A stretch of 59,215 nucleotides of DNA, filler included, from Dimargaris cristalligena (Eukaryota), in the NCBI GenBank assembly GCA_003614675.1. It is 6 parts of 6 records of this genome, joined end to end, with 100 filler letters (N's around TTAATTAATTAA, not from the genome) between each part and the next. Parts side by side here need not be neighbours in the genome. Positions count along the whole stretch, not along the records: positions 9,907 to 19,702 come from ML003230.1; 5 more parts are not named here. One strand, given 5' to 3'. This document shows, piece by piece, positions 15,688 through 17,265 of the stretch (within the stretch, counting starts at the first letter, position 1; the number at the start of each line of letters is the position of its first letter). The position numbers and the translations under genes are program-made. A model generated the notes under the pieces. The model saw nothing but the letters and a program-made list of their open reading frames with translations. It did not search any database and was not told the DNA's origin.

Positions 15688-17265
15688 ATGAAGGTCACCA
15701 TCTCCGTTCTCGCTCTGATTGCACTGTCGGCCACTGCCTCCGCCGGAACCGTGCCCGCCGTCGAGCCTCGCTTCAACAAGTTGCTCGATAACGGTGTCAA
15801 GGTGAATGCCAATGCCAACGATCATTCCAAGGCCAAGCGTTTCGAGAAGCTGCTGGATAACGGTGTTCTCGCGAATGTGAATGTCCTGAATGATCACTCC
15901 AAGGTAAAGCGCTTTGAGAAGCTGCTCGACAATGGCATCAAGGCCGGCGTCAACGCTCTCAACGACCAATCCATGGGCAAACGTTTCGAGAAGCTAATTG
16001 ATAACGGTGTCCTCGCCAACGTCAACCTCCTAAACGATCATTCCAAGGCCAAGCGGTTTGAGAAGTTGCTTAACGACGTCATCAAGGTCGACGCCAATGC
16101 CCTGAATGACCATTCCAAGGCCAAGCGGTTCGAAAAGCTGCTCGATAACGGTGTCAAGGTGAATGCCAATGCCCTCAACGAACACTCTAAGACCAAGCGC
16201 TTCGAGAAGCTGCTGGACAACGGTGTCCTCGCCAACGTCAACCTCCTGAATGATCATTCCAAGGCCAACCGCTTTGAGAAGTTTCTTGACAATGGCATCC
16301 TCGCTAACGTCCATGTCCTGGACGACCATTCGAAGGCCAAGCGTTTTGAGAAGCTGCTAAACAATGGTGTGTTGGGCAATGCTAACGTCCTCAATGACCG
16401 TAGCAAGGCCAAGCGCTTCAACAAACTGTTAGACAATGTAGTTAAGGTTCACTTGAATGTCCTGAATGACCATTCCAAGGCCAAGCGTTTTGAGAAGTTG
16501 CTCGACAACGGGATCCTGGTTAAGGCGAATGCCGTCAATGACCATTCCAAGGCGAAGCGGTTCGACAAGCTCCTCGATAACGGTGTGCTAGCTAACATTC
16601 ACATTTTGAACGAACACTCGAAGGCTAAGCGTTACGACAGGCTGCTGGATAACGGCATCGCGTCCGAGTTCCGTGCTCTCGACGAGCATGGTGCTATGGA
16701 CAAGCGCTTTGAGAAGCTGCTCGACAATGGTGTGTTGGCCAACGTGAACGCTCTGAATGACCATAGCAAGGCCAAGCGGTTCACCAAGTTGCTCGACAAT
16801 GTACTGAAGGTCGACTTGAATGCCCTCAATGACCACTCCCGTGTCACCCATCACTTTACCAAGCTCCTCGATAATGTGGTCAAGGTCGACCTCAACGCCC
16901 TCAATGACGTTAACCGTCGTGGGGAATCGGTCGATAATACCTCGAGCGGACTTCGTATGGAAAAGCGTTTCACCAAGCTGCTCGACAACGTCATCAAGGC
17001 CGATGTCAATGCCTTGAATGGCCACTCCAAGGCCAAGCGGTTCGAAAAGTTGCTCGATAACGGTGTCCTGGTCAATGCCAATGCGGCCAACGGTCACTCC
17101 AAGGCGAAGCGCTTCACCAAGCTTCTAGATAACGGCGTCTTCGCCAACATTAATGTACTGAATGATAAGTCCAAGAGCAAGCGTTTCAACAAGCTGTTAG
17201 ACAATGGTGTTGCGGCCAATGCGAACGCTCTCAATGATATGAGCACTTACCGCCCTAGGTATTAA
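15688..17265 (+). CDS. Secreted Kex2-processed repeat protein (multi-peptide precursor, 20 repeats)
   Basis: Signal peptide MKVTISVLALIALSATASA, then 20 units of consensus F(E/T/N)KLLDN(G/V)VxANVNxLNDHSKA. 17 KR sites plus one RR separate them. Single exon with strong coding-type codon bias. Confidence 0.93.
   Translation: MKVTISVLALIALSATASAGTVPAVEPRFNKLLDNGVKVNANANDHSKAKRFEKLLDNGVLANVNVLNDHSKVKRFEKLLDNGIKAGVNALNDQSMGKRFEKLIDNGVLANVNLLNDHSKAKRFEKLLNDVIKVDANALNDHSKAKRFEKLLDNGVKVNANALNEHSKTKRFEKLLDNGVLANVNLLNDHSKANRFEKFLDNGILANVHVLDDHSKAKRFEKLLNNGVLGNANVLNDRSKAKRFNKLLDNVVKVHLNVLNDHSKAKRFEKLLDNGILVKANAVNDHSKAKRFDKLLDNGVLANIHILNEHSKAKRYDRLLDNGIASEFRALDEHGAMDKRFEKLLDNGVLANVNALNDHSKAKRFTKLLDNVLKVDLNALNDHSRVTHHFTKLLDNVVKVDLNALNDVNRRGESVDNTSSGLRMEKRFTKLLDNVIKADVNALNGHSKAKRFEKLLDNGVLVNANAANGHSKAKRFTKLLDNGVFANINVLNDKSKSKRFNKLLDNGVAANANALNDMSTYRPRY
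15772..17262 (+). repeat. ~72-bp coding tandem repeat x20, diverged at synonymous sites
   Basis: Recurrent tt(c/t)gagaagctgct(c/g)ga(c/t)aa(c/t)gg...aaggccaagcg units with variable third codon positions. Confidence 0.92.

Follow-up and report, generated by a model that had tools for sequence, protein, structure and literature searches.

An intronless open reading frame (ORF) of 525 amino acids in a 59,215-nucleotide stretch of DNA (filler included; hereafter the window) from the fungus Dimargaris cristalligena (GenBank assembly GCA_003614675.1) probably encodes a Kex2-processed repeat protein (KEP), either of D. cristalligena or of a very close relative. As a preliminary description of this sequence had proposed, the predicted protein begins with a signal peptide and a short pro-piece ending in Pro-Arg, and continues as 20 non-identical cores separated mainly by Lys-Arg (K-R), which stands at 17 of the 19 unit junctions. 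The published KEP screen looks for a signal peptide, internal repeats and at least four fragments from cutting at KR or RR (as set out in PMC6339444); the Dimargaris precursor has a predicted signal peptide and internal repeats, and in-silico cutting at KR and RR yields 19 fragments.

As far as sequence can tell, the precursor adds a new peptide family to a class already described, without departure from the known KEP scheme. New by the same standard are the Dimargaris-restricted core family, the spacer-less 20-core gene as compared with its spacer-containing paralogues, and the near-saturated synonymous divergence under purifying selection. The class itself is not new, because KEPs are already common in Zoopagomycota, the densest phylum in the catalogue of PMC7329392, with 185 KEPs in 16 strains. 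The suggestion of a new system therefore falls away, while the observation behind it was confirmed in every testable particular.

Precursor layout and selection on its units

The repeat array is regular in both length and content (Table 1). Fifteen of the 20 units are exactly 24 amino acids long, and the others measure 23, 25, 25, 38 and 26. Every unit starts with the pattern [FY]x[KR][LF][LI] (x = any residue), with Tyr in first position only once, and F1, K3, L4, L5, D6, N7, N17 and S20 are kept in at least 90% of units. The middle of the unit (positions 10–13 and 15) is variable and exists in two sub-types. Dibasic motifs follow the unit borders strictly: each of the 18 coincides with the end of a unit or with the edge of the single insert, and the cores contain none.

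Tandem Repeats Finder describes the array as a 72-nt period with 13.5 copies and 66% matches, and it is the window's sole array with a score of at least 80. Within positions 15820–16586, a higher-order period of 216 nt, or three units, gives 74% matches versus 66% for the 72-nt period. This better match suggests that duplication of three units at a time, involving the two core sub-types, enlarged part of the array.

Outside the array, the N-terminus is charged and then hydrophobic, and across the whole protein hydrophobic 12-residue windows are confined to residues 1–19. The protein contains neither Cys nor Trp, and its single N-x-S/T sequon lies in the insert of unit 16. We found no hydrophobic C-terminal glycosylphosphatidylinositol (GPI) signal and no Ser/Thr-rich region in the 525 residues. 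GC content at third codon positions is 0.71 in the gene versus 0.58–0.69 in its neighbours. The ATG is preceded by 90 pyrimidine-rich bases that include a CATCATCATCATC run. The roughly 2.5 kb upstream of the gene (13100–15687) contain no ORF with a Pfam match; this stretch may represent either an extended promoter or a gene that went unrecognised.

Table 1. Features of the predicted precursor gene, in window coordinates.
Feature	Position	Strand	Basis
Intronless ORF, 525 amino acids, standard code	15688..17265	+	one open frame
Start codon and predicted signal peptide, amino acids 1–19, ending A-S-A	15688..15744	+	hydrophobicity; rule of thumb
Putative pro-piece, 9 amino acids (20–28), its P-R end directly abutting the first core	15745..15771	+	
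Array of 20 tandem units, consensus FEKLLDNGVxANxNALNDHSKAKR (22-amino-acid core plus K-R)	15772..17262	+	unit table, alignment, Tandem Repeats Finder, dN/dS
N-R in place of K-R after unit 7	16267..16272	+	
H-H in place of K-R after unit 15	16849..16854	+	
R-R inside unit 16, then a 16-amino-acid non-repeat insert ending K-R	16915..16968	+	
Last unit, 26 amino acids, divergent tail with P-R, then stop codon	17185..17265	+	

Divergence among the units is concentrated at third codon positions, from which the preliminary description had argued for selection on the peptides and their cleavage sites. We quantified it over the fifteen 24-amino-acid units (105 pairs). Mean pairwise differences at codon positions 1, 2 and 3 were 0.216, 0.168 and 0.507. 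The pooled proportion of synonymous differences (pS) was 0.697, close to saturation, and that of nonsynonymous differences (pN) was 0.182, with a nonsynonymous-to-synonymous ratio (dN/dS) of 0.105; when these stretches were read in frames +1 and +2, the ratio was 1.09 and 1.72. Mean amino-acid identity between units is 69.9%. Conserved residues are themselves encoded in several ways: the junction Arg at position 24 of the K-R sites uses three codons (CGT 7, CGC 5, CGG 5), and the invariant Ser20 uses four. Because dN/dS is low in the ORF frame alone while pS approaches saturation, these values indicate that the units are old duplicates and that purifying selection acts on the peptide sequence and the K-R sites in the ORF frame, bearing out the earlier claim.

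A second isolate carries the gene with its frame intact. Five DNA sequencing runs contain this stretch; four may be source DNA, and the fifth, run X5, belongs to a different study. In X5, 79% of sampled words are present, and its contigs over 15400–17600 cover the entire gene. Within the ORF it differs from the window by 12 substitutions (six synonymous, six nonsynonymous) and one in-frame 3-base insertion, and the frame is nonetheless kept, which indicates that the gene is maintained between strains. For four of the seven protein-level changes, X5 has the unit consensus and the window has the departure. Three are replacements at unit positions 4 (F to L), 6 (N to D) and 18 (G to D), and the fourth is the insertion, an extra V that brings unit 1 to 24 amino acids.

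Relatives and known Kex2-processed precursors

An exhaustive HMMER (phmmer) search of 1.84 billion representative proteins at E ≤ 0.001 returned 12 matches, of which a profile of the 20 units recovers three. Two are hypothetical proteins of D. cristalligena: RKP37002.1 (P0001) has three full-length units scoring 25.9–32.8 bits each against the profile, and RKP37000.1 / KAJ1983165.1 (P0009) has two, at 27.9 and 14.1 bits. The third, KAJ1969747.1 (P0006), is a hypothetical protein of D. xerosporica. P0001 and P0009 have accession numbers two apart, and none of the three was located within the window. We rejected the remaining matches (P0002–P0005, P0007, P0008 and P0010–P0012) as unrelated repeat proteins, with a unit-profile E of at least 0.2 or no score.

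The relatives resemble the precursor in their modules and differ from it in their spacing, and this arrangement is the most informative finding of the analysis. P0001 opens with M-K-V-T and a hydrophobic stretch, as the precursor does, and has P-R directly before its first core. Each of its three 22-amino-acid cores is closed by R-R and followed by a Pro-rich acidic spacer of 43–47 amino acids; the first two spacers, each leading into another core, finish with K-R, and the last reaches the end of the 242-amino-acid sequence. P0009 has two cores amid unrelated sequence, with K-R before and R-R after; in both proteins the cores are set apart by unrelated spacers of 33–47 amino acids. P0006 has about four diverged units of 22–24 amino acids with R-R between them. 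All three combine a predicted signal peptide with the 22-amino-acid core and its dibasic flanks, and the precursor alone has 20 cores without spacers.

Because the cores of P0001 and P0009 are bracketed by dibasic sites and their spacers are unrelated, the conserved module of the family is the 22-amino-acid core with a dibasic site on both sides, and packing between units is not conserved. The separation of cores by unrelated spacers likewise speaks for peptides that are released rather than for a folded repeat domain. Ahead of its cores, P0009 has a distinct short repeat region rich in Leu, Asp, Gly and Lys (residues 54–123), also closed by R-R; this protein may therefore give rise to two kinds of peptide.

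Within the searches made, the core family was found only in Dimargaris. The preliminary description had recognised in the core none of the Kex2-processed precursors it named, and in the Pfam scan the core matches no family. At E up to 1 the scan gave 13 listings, all rejected as summed repeat noise; 12 have no stretch that passes by itself, and Imm52 has one, at 15.3 bits against a cut-off of 25. A word-indexed protein search found no match among proteins of near-equal length and P0001 alone among shorter ones. A profile of 12 double units found no match among longer proteins and is weak evidence, since it missed P0001 too. Full-text literature searches found no mention of the core motif KLLDNG, or of Dimargaris together with Kex2. 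For Kex2-processed proteins in Zoopagomycota they gave only the surveys PMC6339444 and PMC7329392, and for KEPs in mycoparasites only an unrelated review.

Catalogued KEPs offer the closest general parallel. As described by Le Marquer et al. 2019 (PMC6339444) and Umemura 2020 (PMC7329392), they share with the precursor a signal peptide and tandem repeats with KR or RR between them. By the same accounts, the 22-amino-acid core falls in the commonest length class (9–24 amino acids), and 78% of catalogued KEPs have no DUF3328 neighbour; none was found among the ORFs scanned around the precursor either. Both surveys mined annotated protein catalogues, and the exact 525-amino-acid sequence is not in a collection of 15 billion proteins derived from NCBI and UniRef, so the precursor may not be listed in either survey. 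Nor did our searches return a near-identical protein. The ESM Atlas contains the sequence letter for letter, so some gene caller has produced the protein. Repeat-rich precursor genes can thus be missing from standard protein sets, and because this one is, catalogues of annotated proteins may undercount KEPs.

Three well-known precursors share parts of this layout. Saccharomyces alpha-factor (MF-alpha) is made as a secretory polyprotein; Kex2 cuts it after K-R and Kex1 trims the products, which are multiple copies of a short linear peptide, as outlined in PMC6339444. It differs in having X-A or X-P Ste13 dipeptides and near-identical cores, whereas the Dimargaris precursor has such dipeptides at 0 of 17 sites and its cores are not near-identical. 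The 20 copies of the Dimargaris precursor also compare with 2–4 in S. cerevisiae, and with a range of 1–16 across Ascomycota given in PMC6339444. Ustilago maydis Rep1 has a signal sequence and 12 repeats that KEX2 cuts into small amphipathic peptides, and like the precursor it has no STE13 signature; its peptides are reported to act at the hyphal surface (PMC3133707, PMC6339444). Rep1 peptides are 34–53 amino acids long, with amyloid fibrils demonstrated, whereas the Dimargaris cores have 22. No sequence relation to Rep1 emerged from the phmmer search, whose matches were only Dimargaris relatives and repeat noise, in a library without names in which the presence of Rep1 is unverified.

Candida albicans Ece1 is likewise a secreted polyprotein of non-identical, K-R-separated peptides, one of which, candidalysin, is amphipathic and helical. 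The peptides of Ece1 are mutually unrelated, whereas the Dimargaris cores are 20 variants of one core. Candidalysin is also strongly hydrophobic and cationic, in contrast to the Dimargaris cores, whose mean hydrophobicity is about 0 and whose net charge ranges from −3 to +1.

Alternative readings, predicted products and possible roles

Several results weigh against reading the ORF as a KEP. The signal peptide and cleavage sites come from rule-of-thumb criteria rather than from SignalP or ProP; 2 of the 19 junctions lack a dibasic site; and the D. xerosporica relative is weak (E 0.0039 in a search of 12 sequences). The charge and hydrophobicity of the cores make them unlike classical membrane-lytic peptides. 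Moreover, three structure predictions are mutually discordant and none is confident. AlphaFold2 gave the whole protein a predicted local distance difference test score (pLDDT) of 34.6, with all 525 residues below 50, which is unusable for a fold search. The same program, given a two-unit fragment with 12 aligned repeat pairs, returned a single helix (pLDDT 69). The ESM Atlas model of the exact sequence (pLDDT 0.58, predicted template modelling score 0.47) is beta-helix-like and aligns with a WcaM cluster at template modelling (TM) scores of 0.58/0.64 over 369 residues, which fits an uncleaved solenoid. Searching the ESM Atlas by features gave no usable match, and a complex prediction with four copies of a 48-amino-acid two-unit fragment scored 0.02 against a mark of 0.32.

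The ESM Atlas model supports an alternative in which the protein is a secreted folded repeat protein, a beta-helix or other solenoid with one 24-amino-acid unit per turn, that would act without being cleaved, as a protein of the wall, of adhesion or of host contact, and displays K-R as surface residues. The Atlas model also aligns with a second beta-helix cluster, DUF4097 (TM 0.34/0.47), the period is a strict 24 amino acids, and Asn is kept at unit positions 7, 14 and 17. Conserved Asn at fixed repeat positions recalls Asn ladders. AlphaFold2 too, at low confidence, puts a short strand or helix in each unit. We nevertheless consider a solenoid unlikely. Single cores in P0001 and P0009, isolated by spacers and dibasic sites, cannot stack within one chain, and in the precursor each dibasic motif falls exactly at a unit boundary. 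The low model scores, the plain helix predicted for two units, and the lack of a Ser/Thr-rich region or GPI signal all argue in the same direction, and Pfam gives no leucine-rich repeat (LRR) or beta-helix family at E up to 1. An LRR interpretation was rejected separately: the LxxLxLxxN pattern is out of register, with L or K at position 10, and Pfam finds no LRR.

Nor is it likely, in our view, that the gene encodes an alpha-factor-like mating pheromone precursor, which would be a KEP with one specific function. In its favour, the core length lies within the 9–24 amino acids typical of alpha-type pheromones, and the copy number is high (PMC6339444). Against it, the precursor has no STE13 signature: all 17 K-R sites are followed by F or Y and then E, N, D or T. 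Pheromone repeats are described in PMC6339444 as identical or nearly so, whereas these cores are about 70% identical and fall into two sub-types. The repeats also stand near synonymous saturation rather than being homogenised.

The preliminary description had further called the system RiPP-like, after ribosomally synthesised and post-translationally modified peptides, and this part did not hold up. A precursor of the ustiloxin or dikaritin type, whose cores are excised and then cyclised or tailored by clustered enzymes, shares the outline of a signal peptide and Kex2-separated repeats (PMC7329392), and a methyltransferase-like ORF lies 4.7 kb upstream (10288–10968, minus strand). That ORF matches PrmA/MTS-type models and sits amid housekeeping genes, however, and 18 long ORFs of the window plus 41 ORFs of at least 90 amino acids (4–30 kb) contain no DUF3328/UstYa, tyrosinase or other tailoring family, although short or intron-split genes could escape such a scan. 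For comparison, PMC7329392 places the DUF3328 gene of ustiloxin-type precursors at a mean distance of 3.09 genes. The cores themselves have 22 amino acids rather than being YxIx-type 4-mers, and they lack Cys and Trp, with Tyr in 1 of 20. On this evidence a tailored RiPP is very improbable.

It is hardly credible, finally, that the frame is a non-functional opening in repetitive DNA. Its absence from the 15-billion-protein collection would fit such a reading; yet the low dN/dS is seen in the ORF frame only, the frame is kept in X5, annotated paralogues have the N-terminus and core in common with it, and the ESM Atlas entry means that a gene caller has produced it.

Under the KEP reading, the signal peptide would direct the precursor into the endoplasmic reticulum. 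In the late Golgi, a kexin-type convertase would cut after Pro-Arg28, the 17 Lys-Arg sites and one Arg-Arg, and a Kex1-type carboxypeptidase would remove the C-terminal basic pair. Kex2 is known to cleave after Pro-Arg. Since X-A and X-P are absent behind all 17 K-R sites, there is no reason to expect trimming by Ste13. We model this processing on alpha-factor, Rep1 and other KEPs, as described in PMC6339444, PMC3133707 and PMC9769878. KEX2 is reported missing from only a few fungal catalogues (PMC6339444), and Dimargaritales are reported to have many subtilases (PMC9866270).

The predicted products would be about 16 single-core peptides of 21–26 amino acids, mostly 22, with the typical form F-x-K-L-L-D-N-G-V-x-x-N-x-N-x-L-N-D-H-S-K-A. 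Two double-core peptides would accompany them, since units 7 and 8 are probably joined through N-R and units 15 and 16 through H-H, along with one 14-amino-acid peptide released from the unit 16 insert. These peptides are near-neutral and free of Cys, and they are probably unmodified. Our best guess for their form is a moderately amphipathic helix, because each of the five cores tested has its maximal hydrophobic moment at 100 degrees (0.35–0.52, values reached by 0.1–5% of 2000 shuffles) and because AlphaFold2 predicts a helix for two units.

We rank two roles first and give them about half of our confidence jointly: an amphipathic surface or self-associating peptide analogous to the Ustilago repellents, or one directed at the mucoralean host where the haustorium meets it. 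A signal for mating or of the autocrine kind comes next, with about a third, and something else takes the rest. Dimargaritales (Kickxellomycotina, Zoopagomycota) are mycoparasites (PMC9866270), and the repellents of U. maydis functionally replace hydrophobins according to PMC13514795; that hydrophobin review has no passage on Zoopagomycota. We offer, as a speculation of low probability, that this haustorial mycoparasite has an extracellular system specific to its lineage in which the 22-amino-acid peptides do the work, either by self-assembling into a repellent-like amphipathic coat that stands in for hydrophobins or by acting on the mucoralean host at the parasitic interface, with the 20 anciently diverged variants kept as a deliberately mixed set. 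If true, no KEP peptide family in Zoopagomycota would have been assigned a function earlier. KEPs are widespread, but a function is known for very few of the peptides they yield (PMC9769878); for early-diverging fungi, their role is described as remaining to be determined (PMC6339444). The Dimargaris precursor is a very clean case, with 20 cores, dibasic sites at boundaries only, strong purifying selection and spacer-containing paralogues, and the core peptide should therefore be easy to define, synthesise and seek by mass spectrometry in a culturable mycoparasite–host pair.

Genomic surroundings

The window is eukaryotic and contains housekeeping genes that include CPSF73, metaxin/Tom37, TANGO2, Rab3GAP2, a P-type ATPase, SNF2 and Not1. 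The early-diverging fungal host that the preliminary description had surmised is Dimargaris (Zoopagomycota); the metaxin ORF groups with Metaxin-2 of Dimargaris cristalligena at an identity of 90% or higher. A protein with a Rab3GAP2 N-terminal domain (17741–19750, plus strand) adjoins the precursor gene, and a TANGO2 protein lies at 8931–9854 (plus strand). Both belong to the ordinary trafficking machinery, and nothing evident connects them with the precursor.

Two patches of low GC content, 26001–28000 and 38001–40000, stand at 0.39 versus about 0.50 elsewhere and have no ORF of 200 codons or more. Paired blocks of 44 N, 12 bases apart, recur about every 9.89 kb (9807–9906, 19703–19802, 29596–29695, 39480–39579 and 49357–49456). 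They break the Rab3GAP2, TANGO2 and DHX29-like/Not1 frames, and they look like masking rather than assembly gaps.

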